The translations under genes and the position numbers were made by a program. The notes under the pieces are model-generated. The model saw only the letters and a list, made by a program, of their open reading frames with translations. It was not told where the DNA came from and did not search any database. Positions 18,456-32,067 of a stretch of DNA of 32,067 nucleotides are shown here, piece after piece. The first letter of the stretch is position 1; the number at the start of each line of letters is the position of its first letter. The stretch lies in IMG/VR virus record IMGVR_UViG_3300001919_000084; one strand, written 5' to 3'. This DNA is from a virus (Duplodnaviria > Heunggongvirae > Uroviricota > Caudoviricetes).

Positions 18456-18772
18456 ATATCGACACCACGATAACGCTCGATACGGCCCTAAATACCGGTC
18501 TGGCACTTCTCGGTTGGCTTTACATCATGTCCCGTACATGGCGATGGCTGGGTTCCATTTTCCTGAAACAGTGGAAAAAACGGCGCAAACAGGAACTACG
18601 CCAGAAGGCATTAGAAGCGTTCNNNNNNNNNNNNNNNGAACTACGCCAGAAGGCATTAGAAGCGTTCTATGACGCATTTGAACTTGGCAGCATTGAACCA
18701 GGCACAACAGCGAGGATAGCGACAAAAGGCGACCTGATGATAGTGATGTTCAGACAGGAGAAAACAAAATGA
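18452..18772 (+). CDS. small membrane protein, reading frame interrupted by an assembly gap
   Basis: GTG start overlapping the upstream stop; hydrophobic LNTGLALLGWLYIM; contains N-run 18623-18637 flanked by an exact 30-bp duplication, so length and frame are unreliable. Confidence 0.35.
   Translation: MNIDTTITLDTALNTGLALLGWLYIMSRTWRWLGSIFLKQWKKRRKQELRQKALEAFXXXXXELRQKALEAFYDAFELGSIEPGTTARIATKGDLMIVMFRQEKTK
18623..18637. other. assembly gap (15 N)
   Basis: Run of n; the 30 bp before and after (gaactacgccagaaggcattagaagcgttc) are identical, suggesting an unresolved overlap join. Confidence 0.95.
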
Positions 18773-23428: not shown

Positions 23429-24627
23429 CCACTATTACCAAAGAGCGACTGCTGGCAATCAAGCAGTGGCGCGAAACATACGGACCTGGTAGCAACGTTG
23501 TACTGCCAGCAGAAGAAGCGGAAGAACTGGCACGGATTGCTCTGGCAGCGCTGGAAGCTGAACCTGTTCTGTATCAGTCCTGCACTCGCCCCACTTGGAA
23601 TAGCGGTGTTCCGTGGACGGAATGGAAAGAACGTAGTCGTGAGGGCTACGAAAACGATTTGCGCTTTACAGACACGCCTGACCATGCCGGTTGGATAAAC
23701 AAATGCCGAAAACTATATACCACTCCGCCAGTTCCGGTAATGCAGGCTGATGTCGCGCAAGCAATTGAAAACCTCAAGCAGAAGTTAGTGGAATGCAATC
23801 GCTATAACTACTGCGCAGATGCCGTTAAAGGTGTTGAGGATGCCAGCCGCGTCTTGGCACTCCAAAATCAAAATATGTCAGCGCCGATAACGCCGGAGGC
23901 TATTGAAAACGCAATTGAATACATCCGCAGTATCGCTTTTCACATCAATGAAGACGATTACCACGGCAAACATATTGCGTATTTCATGCGACAAGCATTG
24001 GCCTGGCTGGAAGGGCATTCATGCAGCAACGATAGACTGGGTAAAGCCGATAATCAACCAGTACGCGGCAACCAGGCTGCCGAATCCAATCGCGGTAATG
24101 AGTGGACCGGCAATCCTGATATTGATAACGCCATCATCATGCTCGATCGCATAGATACTCTGGAAAATTGCGATGATGACCGTATTGAGGCTGTTAAGGC
24201 CGTTTTGCGTAGACTGGCTGGCAACTATCCGGATATTCCGGATAGTTCGGTGCCAGCGCCAGGAAAGGGCGTCACCGGTGAACNNNNNNNNNNNNNNNNN
24301 NNNNNNNNNNNNNNNNNNNNNNTCCGAATTAAGCCGCATGTTTATCGCGAACTGGTTAACCGTCTCCACGATACAGCGATCAAGTGTGCTGGCACCCAGC
24401 AATTACGAGAAAGAATTAGCCGTGTTTTAGGCGACGTTATTACGCCAGATCATCATAAACAAGCCGAGAAAAGTGGCTTGGAAAGGTGTCACCTTGAGGC
24501 GGCATTAAACATTAAGCCGGGGCATACACTTGGCATTATTGATGCACTATTGGTTCATAAGATGGCCAGGGCTTTATTGCCGCTGGTGGCTGAAAAGCAT
24601 GAGGTGGACCATGCCAACGAAAGCTGA
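23425..24627 (+). CDS. hypothetical protein (about 400 aa), interrupted by an assembly gap
   Basis: ATGA overlap with the upstream stop; contains N-run 24284-24322; C-terminal segment VYRELVNRLHDTAIKCAGTQQLRERI resembles the C-terminus of the DUF4406 protein. Confidence 0.5.
   Translation: MTTITKERLLAIKQWRETYGPGSNVVLPAEEAEELARIALAALEAEPVLYQSCTRPTWNSGVPWTEWKERSREGYENDLRFTDTPDHAGWINKCRKLYTTPPVPVMQADVAQAIENLKQKLVECNRYNYCADAVKGVEDASRVLALQNQNMSAPITPEAIENAIEYIRSIAFHINEDDYHGKHIAYFMRQALAWLEGHSCSNDRLGKADNQPVRGNQAAESNRGNEWTGNPDIDNAIIMLDRIDTLENCDDDRIEAVKAVLRRLAGNYPDIPDSSVPAPGKGVTGEXXXXXXXXXXXXXXRIKPHVYRELVNRLHDTAIKCAGTQQLRERISRVLGDVITPDHHKQAEKSGLERCHLEAALNIKPGHTLGIIDALLVHKMARALLPLVAEKHEVDHANES
24284..24322. 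other. assembly gap (39 N)
   Basis: Run of n inside the reading frame of 23425-24627. Confidence 0.95.
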
Positions 24628-25944: not shown

Positions 25945-26367
25945 ATGAGTTCGTCTGCTTTTGTCACTGTTGTCACTGGAGTAAGCGTTTTTGTCCTAGG
26001 TCGACTCATCATCAAGGGGGTTGAGTCTTACATTTCATTCAAGGAACAGTTGGGGGAAATATCGCATCTGTTATTGTCTAACCAAGCAAAGCTATCGAAT
26101 CCCCGCTCTGACTTAAAACAAGAAATCATCCATGATTTGAAAGATGCGGCAGCACAGTTACGGGTGAAGTACGAACTATTACCTTTCTATATCAAAATGT
26201 TACACATCGGTTTTCGCCTTGTTCCATCAGAAACTGAAATTCGTAAAGCGGCGCAAGAATTGAATCTGATAGCCTCGATACATGACGGTAAAACCGGAGA
26301 GCTGCCATATGAGCACATAGCCAAGATTGGATTACTGCTCAGAATTCCAACCACTTATTCTGCTTAA
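25945..26367 (+). CDS. membrane-anchored protein of unknown function (accessory gene between humD and phd)
   Basis: 140 aa; N-terminal hydrophobic helix FVTVVTGVSVFVLGRLII; GC visibly lower than flanks; TATAAT at 25920-25925 upstream. Confidence 0.5.
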   Translation: MSSSAFVTVVTGVSVFVLGRLIIKGVESYISFKEQLGEISHLLLSNQAKLSNPRSDLKQEIIHDLKDAAAQLRVKYELLPFYIKMLHIGFRLVPSETEIRKAAQELNLIASIHDGKTGELPYEHIAKIGLLLRIPTTYSA

Positions 26368-26475
26368 TCCCAGCAATTGCAAGACTGCATCTCGAGGATT
26401 TAAGGCACCAAGAAGTGGTATTCAGCATCATTAAAACCTATAATTGCGTACACATAACGAGCACACGAGGTGTTT

Positions 26476-26697
26476 ATGCAATCCATTAACTTCCGTACCG
26501 CGCGCGGCAACCTTTCTGAAGTGCTCAACAATGTTGAAGCCGGGGAAGAGGTTGAAATCACCCGCAGAGGCCGTGAGCCAGCAGTAATTGTTAGCAAGGC
26601 TACTTTTGAAGCCTACAAAAAAGCGGCGCTGGATGCCGAATTTGCATCCCTGTTTGACACCCTGGACTCCACCAACAAGGAACTGGTTAACCGATAA
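26476..26697 (+). CDS. phd: Phd antitoxin (prevents host death)
   Basis: [73 protein letters not shown] matches P1 Phd as I recall it; GAGG upstream; the tool ORF starts at an upstream GTG; stop overlaps the doc ATG (TAATG). Confidence 0.9.
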
Positions 26698-27077
26698 TGA
26701 GGCATATATCACCGGAAGAACTTATTGCGCTTCATGATGCGAATATAAGCCGCTACGGTGGCCTGCCGGGAATGTCAGATCCGGGTAGGGCAGAGGCCAT
26801 TATCGGGAGAGTTCAGGCCAGAGTTGCCTACGAAGAGATCAGCGACCTTTTCGAAGTCTCCGCCACCTACCTGGTGGCTACAGCGAGAGGGCATATATTC
26901 AATGATGCCAATAAGCGTACCGCGCTAAACAGTGCGCTGCTATTTCTACGCCGTAACGGGGTGCAGGTATTTGATTCACCTGAACTGGCAGACCTTACTG
27001 TAGGCGCTGCGACTGGCGAGATATCTGTATCTTCTGTCGCCGACACGTTACGTAGATTGTATGGTTCTGCGGAGTAG
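26697..27077 (+). CDS. doc: Doc toxin (death on curing; Fic-fold kinase)
   Basis: 126 aa; [39 protein letters not shown]...[23 protein letters not shown] matches P1 Doc as I recall it. Confidence 0.9.
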
Positions 27078-27081
27078 ATTA

Positions 27082-27279
27082 ATGGCACGTAAATACAACA
27101 AGTTGTCCCGTGAAGCGTTAAAGATGCTTCTTGATGGCGTGAGTCGCCGCGAGGTAAAGCAATACCTGGTTGGTAAGCAAATTGGTGCCAGGACCGCTAT
27201 TGCTGTGTTATGCCGTCAGGAAATGGTTGTGCTTAAACAGAGAATGCTTGGTAGCAGACAAAGTGCTTCCAGTATTTGA
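27082..27279 (+). CDS. small basic protein (65 aa)
   Basis: ORF 27061-27279 trimmed to ATG at 27082 with GGAG 7 nt upstream; immediately follows doc and precedes a terminator. Confidence 0.45.
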   Translation: MARKYNKLSREALKMLLDGVSRREVKQYLVGKQIGARTAIAVLCRQEMVVLKQRMLGSRQSASSI

Positions 27280-27284
27280 AAAGA

Positions 27285-27310
27285 AGCCCGCCATACCAAG
27301 CGGGCTTTTT
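27285..27310. terminator. bidirectional rho-independent terminator
   Basis: Stem agcccgc / gcgggct with loop cataccaa, then T5; between convergent genes. Confidence 0.6.
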
Positions 27311-27311
27311 G

Positions 27312-28088
27312 TTATTTCACCTCTTCTGCCGCTGTATCATTGGACTGTTCTTCTTTGGCCCGTTCTGCAATCGCAGCACGGCATTTCGCCCTGGCTGTAG
27401 CGATTGCTTCTGCTCGCACATCGTCTGGAATCGTTGACGTGATATACATATCCAGTTCTTCGGCACGGAATACTGTTTGGTCCAGATATTCGCGTAGCAT
27501 CCAAGTAAATTCGAAATCACACGCGATAATCTCTGCGCTACCTTCTGCACCATTTGGGAAATGAATAAATGCCTGTTTAGCCAAACCGATAACACGACAT
27601 GCGGTTGCCAAAACAGCGACAACCAGGTTTACATTTTCACACGCTACGGGCTGATTAACGCCGGAGATTACTCCATTTAACTGTCGGTTATATGGAAGGT
27701 AGTTTGAGATGCGTTCTACGCGCCATGTGCCAGTCAGGCTGCCATTCTTAAAGATAATTGGTGTAACGGATAGCCCAAGCTCGCGTATAAGTCGTTGCGC
27801 TATAGCAGGATCATTAAACATGTCTAATGCTACACATTCGAAAGACTGTGCAAGGGTAAACAGTTCTTCCAGAGAGTAGTCTTTGCCCCTGGCGGTGATG
27901 TAACGATGAACGCCGCTTTCTGCATCGCTCCATATAGCTACGCCATGCTCTTCATTCAGCTCTTCATTAAAGCCGAGATACGTCATGATAGTACGTTCAA
28001 TCGTGTCAAACGGCAGTGACATGTCGGCGTTAACAGCCACCAGCAGGCCATTACGCAAGCGGTATTGAATTGCTTTAGTATTTTCCAC
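27312..28088 (-). CDS. hypothetical protein (258 aa)
   Basis: GTG start 6 nt after the upstream stop; last gene of the leftward operon. Confidence 0.5.
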   Translation of the reverse strand: MENTKAIQYRLRNGLLVAVNADMSLPFDTIERTIMTYLGFNEELNEEHGVAIWSDAESGVHRYITARGKDYSLEELFTLAQSFECVALDMFNDPAIAQRLIRELGLSVTPIIFKNGSLTGTWRVERISNYLPYNRQLNGVISGVNQPVACENVNLVVAVLATACRVIGLAKQAFIHFPNGAEGSAEIIACDFEFTWMLREYLDQTVFRAEELDMYITSTIPDDVRAEAIATARAKCRAAIAERAKEEQSNDTAAEEVK

Positions 28089-28094
28089 GTTAAA

Positions 28095-28772
28095 TCACTC
28101 CACTACAAACCAGTCACATGCCAGTAAGTCGCCTACAGAAGGAACCCACGGAACAACTACACCTTGTGCATTTTTTAAGGCGAAATAAGCACCATACGGA
28201 ACGAGGTCGCCGGGGAAATATCCCTTAATGGCTTCCATTCGTGCCGGGTACTGTCCTTCAGGAACCAGCCAGCAGAATTGGTTTTCGCCGTTCCACCCGC
28301 GTCGAGCAACTTTCTTGCCATCCTTCAGCCACATCAGCGCGTCAGAAAAGTCGGCTGCTTCAAGGTCGATTTCTTCTTGCTGGGTGGTGATGCCACCAGC
28401 AGAAATAGTTACGCTCCCGGTAAGATTAATCATCACGCCGTTGTCATCCGTAATGATGACCGTGGTTCCATTTTTGGAGGCGTCGTTAACCAGGCCATAG
28501 CGTTCCTCAAATGGTTTCTCCGGGGCATAGAACAGATAACCGTTTTCATAAACGATCAGATACCCGCCAGTTTTTGGTCGGTGTTTTTGTAAAAACATTG
28601 CGTCAACACAAACTGTTGCCCCTTTTGGTTCAACGAGTTCGATGCAGCCCCAAAGTGGGGCATCAGTTACTCCGAAAATAACAACATTTTTGATTTTCGA
28701 TGCACTAACGTTTTTGTGAGCTTTGTATTTGGGAAGGAACTTAAAAAGCTCTTTCGTTGCCATGTTATTCAT
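28095..28772 (-). CDS. hypothetical protein with C-terminal DUF2829-like domain
   Basis: 225 aa; C-terminal FSDALMWLKDGKKVARRGWNGENQFCWLV resembles the DUF2829 motif (W..G..V.R.GW). Confidence 0.5.
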   Translation of the reverse strand: MNNMATKELFKFLPKYKAHKNVSASKIKNVVIFGVTDAPLWGCIELVEPKGATVCVDAMFLQKHRPKTGGYLIVYENGYLFYAPEKPFEERYGLVNDASKNGTTVIITDDNGVMINLTGSVTISAGGITTQQEEIDLEAADFSDALMWLKDGKKVARRGWNGENQFCWLVPEGQYPARMEAIKGYFPGDLVPYGAYFALKNAQGVVVPWVPSVGDLLACDWFVVE

Positions 28773-28786
28773 AGTCTTTTCTCTGC

Positions 28787-29281
28787 TTATAACTTTTCGT
28801 ACTGAAGCGGTGAACGCTTAATTTCAAAGTGGCCTTCCGATGTGCTACCAAAGCCACCAGCACCACGTTCCGTTTCGTTGAGTTCCTCAACCTCGACTAG
28901 TGAGACTTGTTCAACTCGTTCAAAAATTCCTTGCATGACAGCCATTCCAGGCTTGAGACAAACGCCTTCCCCGCCGGGATCAGTAATCAGTTTTGCCATG
29001 ATTTCGCCGCGATAATCGGAGTCGATAATTCCTACGCAGTTAGCCAGGCGAGTATGTTTTTTGCAGCCCAATCCGGATCGCGGATAGAGTTTCAGACACC
29101 AGCCGGGCGGGATCTCCATAGCCAGTCCGGTATACACCCACCAGCTTGAGGAAATTGCACCATTGCTATCGACGCATGGTTTTATTTCAACAGCCTCAAA
29201 ATCCATCGCCGCCGATCCGGAGGTGGCATAAGCTGGAAGTTTTGCTGCCGGATGTAGGCGTTTCACTTTTACGTAAATCAT
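28787..29281 (-). CDS. dut: dUTP diphosphatase (dUTPase)-like
   Basis: 164 aa; LPAYATSGSAAMD, PRSGLG, IDSDYRGEI and RGAGGFGST match dUTPase motifs; ATGA overlap with the upstream gene. Confidence 0.75.
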   Translation of the reverse strand: MIYVKVKRLHPAAKLPAYATSGSAAMDFEAVEIKPCVDSNGAISSSWWVYTGLAMEIPPGWCLKLYPRSGLGCKKHTRLANCVGIIDSDYRGEIMAKLITDPGGEGVCLKPGMAVMQGIFERVEQVSLVEVEELNETERGAGGFGSTSEGHFEIKRSPLQYEKL

Positions 29282-29754
29282 TGTTTTTTAGCTCTCTGCG
29301 TGAAGGTGTAAACCCGACGTTTGATATGTGGAACGGTAGGAACAGGAAGACAGGAACTTTCAATAACTCCTTGCTCCTCCAGCGATCGCACCGCCCGCAA
29401 GAACTGCGACGTGTCGCCGCCAAACTGGCGGGCATAGGTGCTGCCGTTATGAAGTATTTGAGCTATTACCCGAGCTTTTGTCTGGCTGTCACGATATGCG
29501 AATAGCCGCACGGCCTCTTCTGGCGCAATCGCTAACTGATAGCCTTTCCCGGCACGGTGTCGAATGAATCCATGCGCCAGTAGGTTTTTGAGTTCGTTAC
29601 GAGTGCGAACAGATCCGTAATCCAGGAAGTGTGGATTGATAACGACTGGCTTAAACCATTCCGTAGGTGCTTTAGCTAATAGAGCTAACAGCTTCCCGGA
29701 TAATTCTGGATAGGAAGACGGGTAACAATTCAGAGATGTGTAATAAGTTTTCAC
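29278..29754 (-). CDS. hypothetical protein, possible winged-helix DNA-binding
   Basis: 158 aa, GTG start overlapping the upstream stop; central segment RVIAQILHNGSTYARQFGGDTSQFLRAVRSLEEQGVIES. Confidence 0.45.
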   Translation of the reverse strand: MKTYYTSLNCYPSSYPELSGKLLALLAKAPTEWFKPVVINPHFLDYGSVRTRNELKNLLAHGFIRHRAGKGYQLAIAPEEAVRLFAYRDSQTKARVIAQILHNGSTYARQFGGDTSQFLRAVRSLEEQGVIESSCLPVPTVPHIKRRVYTFTQRAKKQ

Positions 29755-30095
29755 CGACGCCCCCTTGCAGGATAGCGACCTGCATTAGTATCCGGTGCAA
29801 TAAAGCCGGTAGTGGGGCGAGTGAAAGCGAGATTAATCTTCTCGACCATAGTGCGATAATTTTCCTGATAGTGGGCCAGGAGTTTTTCGGCGGCAATGAT
29901 GGTTACTTTCCGGACGTAGCTTTCTGCTTCCTCCAGATTTCGCCAGTTTTTTTCGAGGGTAAACACAGGGACGGCCTCAAGCCCGGTCATGATGCCGAAC
30001 ACAACGACAGCATGACTGTTCTTAACACCAGCGGCGAAGGTTACGGTGTAACCATCCACCTTAAAGCGTCTTGATTCCGTGATTTGACTCTGCAA
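29751..30095 (-). CDS. hypothetical protein (114 aa)
   Basis: TTG start per the ORF track; first gene after the intergenic region that carries a TGTTAGA half-site. Confidence 0.4.
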   Translation of the reverse strand: MQSQITESRRFKVDGYTVTFAAGVKNSHAVVVFGIMTGLEAVPVFTLEKNWRNLEEAESYVRKVTIIAAEKLLAHYQENYRTMVEKINLAFTRPTTGFIAPDTNAGRYPARGRR

Positions 30096-30168
30096 AGCAC
30101 CCTCCGAAATAGGCGAGGGTACTTTACAGCAAAGATAACAATCTAAAAAGATGTGTTAGAAATTTAAT

Positions 30169-31197
30169 TTATGAATCCATCAGGCGGCTATTAGCCCCCA
30201 CAGACACGCCGCCACGGCGCAGATACCGCATAAGTGTTTCCGGTTTCTTCCAGGTTCCTTCCTGCATGATCTCCACCATAGACACCTGCTTTTCTGCCAT
30301 ATCGATAGCAGCCCCGACACGAGCACTATGCCCGGTCCACGTCCGGTATCTCCCCTTGTTTGGAGTGGCATCTCTTTTATTCAGCAACACCCAGGCGTCA
30401 CTAAATATTTTCTCCATTGCAGGTGCAGTAAGGGGCGTTGTCGTAATCCTGGCCTTATTGCTACGGTGTATCGGCGGGAACAGCACCGCGTCAGGATGTT
30501 CACGAAGCCCGGAAACATCCAGCCAGTCATTCAGCACAGCAGTAGTGCGACGGGAAAGCACCTTATCAAGCCCGGCGGCGGTCGTTATTGTCTTCGTGTG
30601 TGAAATATGTAGCGTGACAGTGTCACCTGTTTGGTCCAGATCTCCTACACGAATACGCGAGATTTCAGACATGCGCATCAGCGTATTGTATGCAACAAAG
30701 AGAAAAGCCCGGTTGCGCAGGTCCACCAGCCGTTCTGACCTGGACAACAGGACGTCGAGCAGTTTCAGATCGTCCCACCGCAGCGGTATAGCCTGGCCTG
30801 TTCGTTCGCCTTTTTCCGTTGCCGCTTCACGCCGGATGCGCCGCATAGCCAGAGAAACACTTTTATCATCCGAAAGTGGCGGAAGGCCACAATGCGAAAG
30901 CAGCATGTTCAGCATGGCGTAGTGCTTATCAATGGTGGTCGAAGCCAGATCAGCATCATGCAGCTGAAGAAAATACTCGCGGGCCATCTCTGGAGAGATC
31001 GGGAACCAGGCGAGCTGGCGAGCGTGACACCATCTCGCCCAGGAGTGAAACACTAACCGGAGATCGCGCAAAGTATTAGGCGCGTAAGCCCCCTGGTCAT
31101 TCATGAACCGCATAAAGTTTTCTGCGGCCTCCTGGTACTCTTTGCCAATGTTGCGCAGAAAACCACTGGAGCTGCCAGAGATAATTAATTCACTCAT
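30169..31197 (-). CDS. Cre-family tyrosine site-specific recombinase
   Basis: 342 aa; aligns over the full length with P1 Cre as I recall it: WFPISPEMAREYFLQL / WFPAEPEDVRDYLLYL, LNML, GLPPLSDDKSVSLAMRRIRRE / GLPRPSDSNAVSLVMRRIRKE, LRNRAFLFVAYNTLMRMSEISRIRV / IRNLAFLGIAYNTLLRIAEIARIRV, HSARVGAAIDMA / HSARVGAARDMA, and a C-terminal RYLR tyrosine. Confidence 0.85.
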   Translation of the reverse strand: MSELIISGSSSGFLRNIGKEYQEAAENFMRFMNDQGAYAPNTLRDLRLVFHSWARWCHARQLAWFPISPEMAREYFLQLHDADLASTTIDKHYAMLNMLLSHCGLPPLSDDKSVSLAMRRIRREAATEKGERTGQAIPLRWDDLKLLDVLLSRSERLVDLRNRAFLFVAYNTLMRMSEISRIRVGDLDQTGDTVTLHISHTKTITTAAGLDKVLSRRTTAVLNDWLDVSGLREHPDAVLFPPIHRSNKARITTTPLTAPAMEKIFSDAWVLLNKRDATPNKGRYRTWTGHSARVGAAIDMAEKQVSMVEIMQEGTWKKPETLMRYLRRGGVSVGANSRLMDS

Positions 31198-31348
31198 GAA
31201 ACTATTTAACCTCTATATACAGATGACGCTACGCGAAAAATATAAAAATGACAGGGTAGCTATAAGTTAATTTTCAAGATTCAAACCTTTGATTCGAGGC
31301 ACGTATTTTCAGTGATGTCAACACTGATCATCCACCCATGATTATAGC

Positions 31349-31382
31349 TTAACTTTAAATAATGCCAATTATTTAAAGTTAT
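31349..31382. other. lox-like 34-bp recombination site candidate
   Basis: TTAACTTTAAATA-ATGCCAAT-TATTTAAAGTTAT: 13-bp inverted arms with an 8-bp asymmetric spacer (also readable as 14-bp arms plus a 4-bp core), about 150 bp upstream of the recombinase gene. Arms share ATAACTT...A/GTTAT with loxP. Confidence 0.55.
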
Positions 31383-31591
31383 AAAATGCCGATTTTTTTA
31401 AATCCATCATAGATTGATGATGACCAGTAACACGTTGCCTTCATGGTCTTTAATTTGCGAAGTGTGGTTTCTACGGTTGGTTTTCTAAAATTGATGACAA
31501 AAAATCACAGTTCGATCCTTTACTCACTCTGTTATTCGACATAAATTTGTCATAGTAATTTTATGTTAGAAAACTAAATCGAGTAGGAATA

Positions 31592-32067
31592 ATGAGTAAG
31601 AAGTCGATCGAGAAAGAGTACAAACGGTTCCTGCAAACCGCTGAACGGTGGAAAGAGCTGGTGGTCGCAAACTCTGTTTTCCATGATACCAGTTATGCTG
31701 GCGAGGAATTCCGCCATGTTGCATTAACGCATGACCAAAACATATTAGAAGAAGCTGAAAAATGTCTTGCTGAATGGAAAGCCTTCGTTGACATGTGCCG
31801 CGATGCCGACGGCAAAGCGTCGAACATTGTTGAGTCTGTATATTCTCCGATCCCATTCATCATTGAGGACACCAATCAAAGCACGCATGTCGTTGTGCAA
31901 AGCGCTACAACAACACGTACATTTACACGTGAACAATTGCTAAAAAAATACGACAAAATCATAAAGAAAAGCCTGAAAAATAGGGTTTTTTCTCAAATCG
32001 TAGGTGCTCTTGAAGAAGAACAGCGCTTCTTTGAAGCTGAGCCTGAAGGCGAGATCTACCGGGCGCG
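31592..32067 (+). CDS. hypothetical protein, 3' end outside window
   Basis: ATG at 31592 with AGGA upstream; open frame to the window edge (MSKKSIEKEYKRFLQTAERWKELVVANSVFHDTSYAGEEF...); preceded by the TGTTAGAAAACTAA motif at 31564-31577. Confidence 0.5.
   Translation, partial: MSKKSIEKEYKRFLQTAERWKELVVANSVFHDTSYAGEEFRHVALTHDQNILEEAEKCLAEWKAFVDMCRDADGKASNIVESVYSPIPFIIEDTNQSTHVVVQSATTTRTFTREQLLKKYDKIIKKSLKNRVFSQIVGALEEEQRFFEAEPEGEIYRA

Follow-up and report, generated by a model that had tools for sequence, protein, structure and literature searches.

The DNA analysed here is a 32,067-nucleotide stretch from a virus of the class Caudoviricetes (IMG/VR record IMGVR_UViG_3300001919_000084; the whole stretch is referred to as the window), near the end of which a gene for a Cre-like recombinase lies beside a lox-like inverted repeat. 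The question raised by this locus is whether enzyme and site constitute a new orthogonal recombination system or one that is already known. Our analysis identifies the pair as Dre/rox itself, which is already known and is not a new orthogonal system; that the locus represents a natural dre-rox module of a D6-like, P1-family phage-plasmid is, in our judgement, virtually certain. Dre/rox is widely used in genome engineering and, in mouse genetics, is a standard choice of orthogonal system to combine with Cre/loxP; it was reportedly described in 2004 by Sauer and McDermott. The pair itself thus holds no discovery value, Dre/rox having long been described, and the more informative aspects of the locus concern its natural setting, the sequence overlapping the site, and the variants found among its relatives. 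The positions of the principal features are given in Table 1.

Table 1. Features of the dre-rox-c1 region, numbered from the first letter of the window.
Feature	Position	Strand	Description and basis
dre gene (Dre tyrosine recombinase)	30169..31197	minus	ORF listing; 342 aa and a stop codon; differs from phage D6 Dre by G11S
Predicted sigma-70 promoter directed toward dre	31341..31368	minus	-35 TTGGCA at 31368..31363; 16-nt spacer; -10 TATAAT at 31346..31341
rox	31350..31381	none	32-bp perfect inverted repeat, 14-4-14; repeat finder; identical to AY753669 misc_recomb 'rox'
c1 repressor gene, D6-type, 5′ part	31593..32067	plus	First 158 aa 100% identical to D6 C1; synteny with D6

The assignment of the protein to the Cre clade, made in the initial annotation from the letters alone, is upheld by comparison with solved structures. 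A phmmer search matched residues 22–341 at E = 5e-69, and each of the 17 PDB matches (17/17) is Cre or Cre-derived; this full-length homology takes in the helical N-terminal domain as well as the catalytic C-terminal one, and identity to the Cre of the P1 record is 41% in local and 39.9% in global alignment. Pfam recognises a Phage_integrase domain together with a SAM-like N-terminal domain. The HSARVGAA segment and the C-terminal catalytic tyrosine, both of which had been picked out beforehand, are located at residues 290–297 and at Tyr325, respectively. On alignment to Cre, the full catalytic R-K-H-R-W-Y hexad is intact, with Dre R175, K202, H290, R293, W316 and Y325 aligning to Cre R173, K201, H289, R292, W315 and Y324; this numbering agrees with that given for Dre in PMC4777119. 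Compared with AAV84949.1, the phage D6 protein annotated as 'dre', the window protein is identical at 341 of 342 residues, without gaps, the sole change being G11S.

The 34-bp site that had been proposed about 150 bp upstream of the recombinase start is present as the 34-mer TTAACTTTAAATAATGCCAATTATTTAAAGTTAT at 31349..31382, 151 nt from the dre ATG; it occurs as a single copy in the window and gave no matches in 100 shuffles. The accompanying 13-8-13 parse stands only in part, since arms of 13 nt pair at 12 of 13 positions (the outermost pair, T at both 31349 and 31382, is mismatched), whereas the perfect repeat is 32 bp long with a 14-4-14 organisation. Its arms occupy 31350–31363 and 31368–31381, flanking an asymmetric GCCA core (31364–31367), and it lies 152 nt from the ATG. 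Because the two outer bases vary among relatives, most of which have C at the position of 31349 and some of which have G at that of 31382, we regard the 32-mer as the conserved unit. This 32-mer, TAACTTTAAATAATGCCAATTATTTAAAGTTA, matches the D6-annotated and published site exactly (32/32): the wild-type roxP printed by Chuang et al. 2016 (PMC4777119), 5′-TAACTTTAAATAATGCCAATTATTTAAAGTTA-3′, is identical to 31350..31381, and Suzuki & Nakayama 2011 (PMC3082901) print the reverse complement of rox with D6 boundary bases, which matches the same positions. Dre/rox of phage D6 is attributed to Sauer & McDermott 2004 in the citation given in PMC3082901. In likening the locus to orthogonal pairs including Dre/rox, the initial annotation was thus correct as to kind, but missed that the pair is Dre/rox itself (protein 341/342; site 32/32).

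No other perfect inverted repeat with a short loop is as long as rox anywhere in the 32 kb. In 60 Markov-1 simulations of the window the arms reached at most 13 nt (once) and never 14 nt, and the inverted repeat is beyond chance. It is unique both in the window and in the whole of the sibling replicon CP057521.1, in which the next-best 14-N4-14 candidate carries mismatches at 9 of 28 arm positions and merely overlaps rox, and in which the scan revealed no isolated rox half-site with fewer than three mismatches. The replicon-wide search for further sites therefore gives one rox per replicon, as is the case for loxP in P1.

The resemblance to loxP is real but partial. The P1 loxP and rox sites share the outer arm bases TAACTT...AAGTTA; the right arm of the 34-mer, reversed, reads ATAACTT, as had been stated for the outer arm of loxP, but its left arm begins with TTAACTT. 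Differences lie in the spacer and at the inner positions of the arms, again as anticipated, with the 34-mer identical to the loxP of the P1 record at 21–22 of 34 positions, and the organisation of loxP is 13-8-13 rather than 14-4-14. The two systems also have in common a two-domain fold family, the catalytic residues, about 40% full-length identity of the recombinases, and the location of the site, which in either P1-type plasmid prophage is flanked by the recombinase gene on one side and the c1 immunity region on the other. Their local gene arrangements are different: in P1, cra and 418 nt lie between lox and cre, and coi/imcAB lie between lox and c1, whereas in the window rox is separated from dre by 151 nt and from c1 by approximately 210 nt, without such genes in either interval. 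Published tests found no cross-recombination between Cre/loxP and Dre/rox (PMC3082901).

Acting on a site identical to that of the window, the Dre of D6 (G11 form) efficiently excises DNA between two rox sites in both E. coli and mammalian cells and does not cross-react with loxP, VloxP or SloxM1 (PMC4777119, PMC4957104, PMC3082901); its only cross-reaction is with the near-identical arms of pox (PMC4957104). The distinct specificity suspected in the initial annotation is therefore genuine, and had been demonstrated experimentally at an earlier date for the D6 pair. The Dre of the window (S11 form), which differs from that of D6 at residue 11 only, would be expected to act in the same manner. 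An alternative is that the window enzyme is a Dre-like recombinase with a target specificity shifted relative to laboratory Dre, and hence forms a new orthogonal pair. The divergence of the gene (about 96% identity to D6 at the DNA level) and the G11S change could be taken in its favour; however, the cognate site is identical to rox at 32 of 32 positions, 36 of the 37 nucleotide differences between the dre genes are synonymous, and residue 11, which precedes residue 22 and belongs to an N-terminal tail outside the region aligned to crystallised Cre chains, is far from R44, P259 and K263. These last, which by alignment to Cre occupy positions reported to govern specificity for rox versus loxP, are unchanged; replacement of the corresponding Cre residues by those of Dre/Panto (K43R, R259P, G263K) gave Cre activity on rox (Karimova et al. 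2016, PMC4957104). We thus consider a shifted specificity very unlikely. The same nucleotide comparison (36 synonymous differences and 1 non-synonymous) gives a dS of approximately 0.16 and a dN/dS of approximately 0.008 and, as judged from these two sequences, the whole Dre protein is under very strong purifying selection.

The Panto/pox system of Pantoea sp. aB (PMC4957104) is also a Cre-type pair, with pox arms differing from those of rox by 1 nucleotide, and Dre and Panto each recombine both rox and pox (PMC4957104). Panto shares only 52% identity with Dre, however, and the spacers of pox and rox are not compatible (PMC4957104); the window protein is Dre.

A predicted sigma-70 promoter directed toward dre overlaps the site (Table 1). 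It agrees with the consensus at 11 of 12 positions; its -35 element overlaps the rox spacer and the dre-proximal arm, whilst its -10 element lies 3 nt outside rox. TTGGCA-16-TATAAT is the sole promoter-like call between 31100 and 31700, and is the only match to at least 11 of 12 positions on either strand of the whole window. Related loci were collected by a protein-based scan, which gave 36 loci, 35 of them usable for site comparison. In 33 of these 35, namely all 33 Dre-clade loci, including a lineage with a recombinase of 70% identity, TATAAT lies exactly 3 nt from rox, and this offset is kept in loci that have diverged both in the three bases between the two elements and in the sequence further downstream; TATAAT is absent from two relatives at about 55% identity. 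The position and conservation of TTGGCA-16-TATAAT suggest that it is the dre promoter, and that occupancy of rox by Dre would repress it. Dre bound to rox would occlude its own promoter, resulting in an autoregulated level of the enzyme.

The overlap of rox with a near-consensus promoter might also be read to mean that the palindrome is mainly regulatory, either as an operator/promoter between the divergent dre and c1 genes or as a hairpin, and is not a recombination site. The scan of genome contigs for rox arms could be cited to the same end, as its sole match, in an unrelated Clostridia MAG (OZ007016.1; L007:6381-6412), comprises exact rox arms around a TAAT core in AT-rich sequence; since a T-run follows this match and no Dre homologue lies near it, we reject it as a rox site and regard it as a chance terminator-like hairpin. 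No T-run follows rox in the window. Moreover, the identical 32-mer is an experimentally validated substrate of Dre (PMC4777119, PMC4957104, PMC3082901), and a regulatory role would add to recombination rather than replace it; a purely regulatory palindrome is accordingly even less plausible than an enzyme of shifted specificity. The recombination site rox, with a putative promoter overlapping it, is the reading that we retain.

The surroundings of the module are those of a P1-family phage-plasmid. Megablast of 30100..31600 against GenBank phages matched only Escherichia phage D6 (96–96.5% identity), the annotation of which reads, under the match, 'dre: tyrosine recombinase', 'region of crossover (rox) site for Dre recombinase' and 'c1'. 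The gene order dut-orf3-orf2-dre-rox-c1 is common to the window and D6, with c1 divergent from dre and its ORF running past the window end. Relative to D6 Dre/rox (AY753669, MF356679), the 32-bp rox, its distance from the dre start codon and the genes on either side (c1; orf2, orf3, dut) are the same; the differences, apart from G11S, comprise approximately 3.6% synonymous divergence within dre, approximately 8% divergence of the dre-rox spacer, and the base abutting rox, which is T in the window and C in D6. The replicon as a whole represents a sibling lineage of D6, which covers 87% of positions 1–25000 at about 95% identity. Positions 26000–32067 are 100% identical to several E. coli and Salmonella plasmids of approximately 92 kb, which are D6-like elements within the P1 family of phage-plasmids. 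On one sibling plasmid, CP057521.1, the gene set is of P1 type (head, tail, pacA/pacB, lpa, c1, phd/doc, lytic replication and RepB), and this plasmid is therefore a phage-plasmid. Synteny with D6 and with the 92-kb plasmids places the dre-rox locus in the immC region of such an element.

The module is common in nature. The dre/rox segment is present in 143 PLSDB plasmids, with identity of at least 95% in 97 of these, and in 117 of 5426 complete E. coli genomes, in which 117 of 120 occurrences are on plasmids; the presence of Dre/rox in two E. coli strains had been pointed out before by Karimova et al. 2016 (PMC4957104). Among close relatives rox is almost invariant and the gene is under strong purifying selection. 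The proposition that the protein is an XerC/D-type or lambda-type integrase inserting the element into the chromosome, for which a generic Pfam Phage_integrase match and weak NCBIfam matches to XerC and XerD might be adduced, is the most improbable of those weighed and is refuted by this plasmid location, by the best structural relatives being exclusively Cre over the full length, and by the scores themselves, as NCBIfam, which has no Cre- or Dre-specific model, returned only XerC/XerD matches, all sub-threshold at 21–28 bits against cut-offs of 330–335 (more than 10-fold below).

Several other features of the window and its sibling plasmid were apparent. A phd/doc-type addiction module lies at approximately 26476..27077 (plus strand), a few kb from dre, with a Doc-like ORF at 26697..27077 and the position of phd inferred from the annotation of D6 and the plasmids; a HigA/RelE pair is also present on the sibling plasmid. 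An ORF with a DUF2829 domain (28095..28772, minus strand) is full length in the window (225 aa), its D6 counterpart being annotated at only 146 aa and as resembling the C-terminal half of a protein from phage SJ46. Mapping onto CP057521.1 shows that positions 1 to approximately 220 (plus strand) belong to the 3′ end of a plasmid-borne gene annotated glnS (glutamine--tRNA ligase), an unusual cargo for a P1-type phage-plasmid. Runs of N at 18623..18637 (15) and 24284..24322 (39) mark masked or unresolved stretches.

Dre is a Cre-type tyrosine recombinase, and its D6 form recombines two rox sites without accessory factors (PMC4777119, PMC4957104, PMC3082901). By analogy with Cre, each rox would be bound by two Dre monomers, one per 14-bp arm, two such sites would synapse in a tetramer, and Tyr325 would cleave and exchange strands in the central region via a Holliday-junction intermediate, with the direction of the site presumably set by the asymmetric GCCA core. 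The functional crossover region has been argued to be about 8 bp, as in loxP, despite the 4-bp asymmetric core, and the published positions at which Dre cleaves rox are inferred ones (PMC4777119). With a single rox per replicon, Dre would be expected, as is Cre at loxP in P1, to circularise terminally redundant linear phage DNA after infection and to resolve plasmid-prophage dimers to monomers, and so to promote faithful segregation; both the cyclisation and the dimer-resolution roles are carried over from established P1 biology to D6-like elements, and are to be read as probable by that analogy.

Comparison of flanking sequences suggests a further role for the site. In three lineages (L030, L017 and L025) homology to the window ends at 31382, the base directly adjoining rox toward c1, and resumes approximately 130–150 bp further on; in these lineages C1 is 80–90% identical and Dre 94–99.7% identical. 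Since homology stops at the c1-side edge of rox, and C1 is more diverged than Dre, rox sits at a mosaic junction, and may act as one for the exchange of immunity regions between phage-plasmids. Breaks beside rox in four other loci (L015, L018, L020 and L029), seen on ungapped comparison of the flanks, proved to be small indels on gapped alignment, by which only L030, L017, L025 and the 70%-identity lineage (L013) diverge beside rox. Recombination at rox would never part dre from its -10 element, but could swap the DNA upstream of the crossover, with which the breaking of lineage homology at the c1-side edge is consistent. That a dre promoter is built into rox and that Dre thereby autoregulates, with rox possibly serving also as a junction for immunity-region exchange, is a composite proposal that we put forward tentatively, as possible rather than probable. 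The literature searched, to which the primary D6 papers did not belong, contained no relevant mention of promoter activity of rox or of Dre autoregulation, and a rox-embedded promoter toward dre may be new; it could matter both for the biology of the element and for the placing of rox upstream of bacterial genes.

Natural variants of rox were evident among the relatives. A pattern scan for rox arms with a free core matched 23 IMG/VR contigs, and among the 35 loci compared for their sites canonical rox is present in 21. A single A-to-G change in the c1-proximal arm (TAACTTTAGATAAT) is found in 9 of the 35, including L034, L038, L040, L042, L047 and L048, and a CCCC core in one (L020/L050). In L060, the recombinase of which is 89% identical, the A-to-G arm change is accompanied by changes in the core and in the adjoining base. 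The lineage at 70% recombinase identity to Dre (L013/L063, on an 89-kb contig) retains both rox arms around a GCTA core, its C1 being 43% identical. Such natural variants of the site, and a recombinase that has retained the rox arms at 70% identity to Dre, may be of interest to recombinase engineers.

The most divergent recombinases, on two viral contigs (L065:1300-2514 and L066:1300-2514), are 55–56% identical to Dre and 40% identical to Cre, and each is accompanied, 150 nt upstream, by a distinct perfect 13-8-13 site, ATAACTTTATATA ATGTCAGT TATATAAAGTTAT. We considered whether these represent Panto/pox; the arm change is a different one, and 6 of 8 spacer positions are shared with rox as against the 4 of 8 described for pox, so that, with pox compared by its description (PMC4957104), they are probably not that system. 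A literature search for the site sequence returned no match, and the recombinase and site of L065/L066 may, as far as their sequences indicate, constitute an undescribed Cre-type pair.
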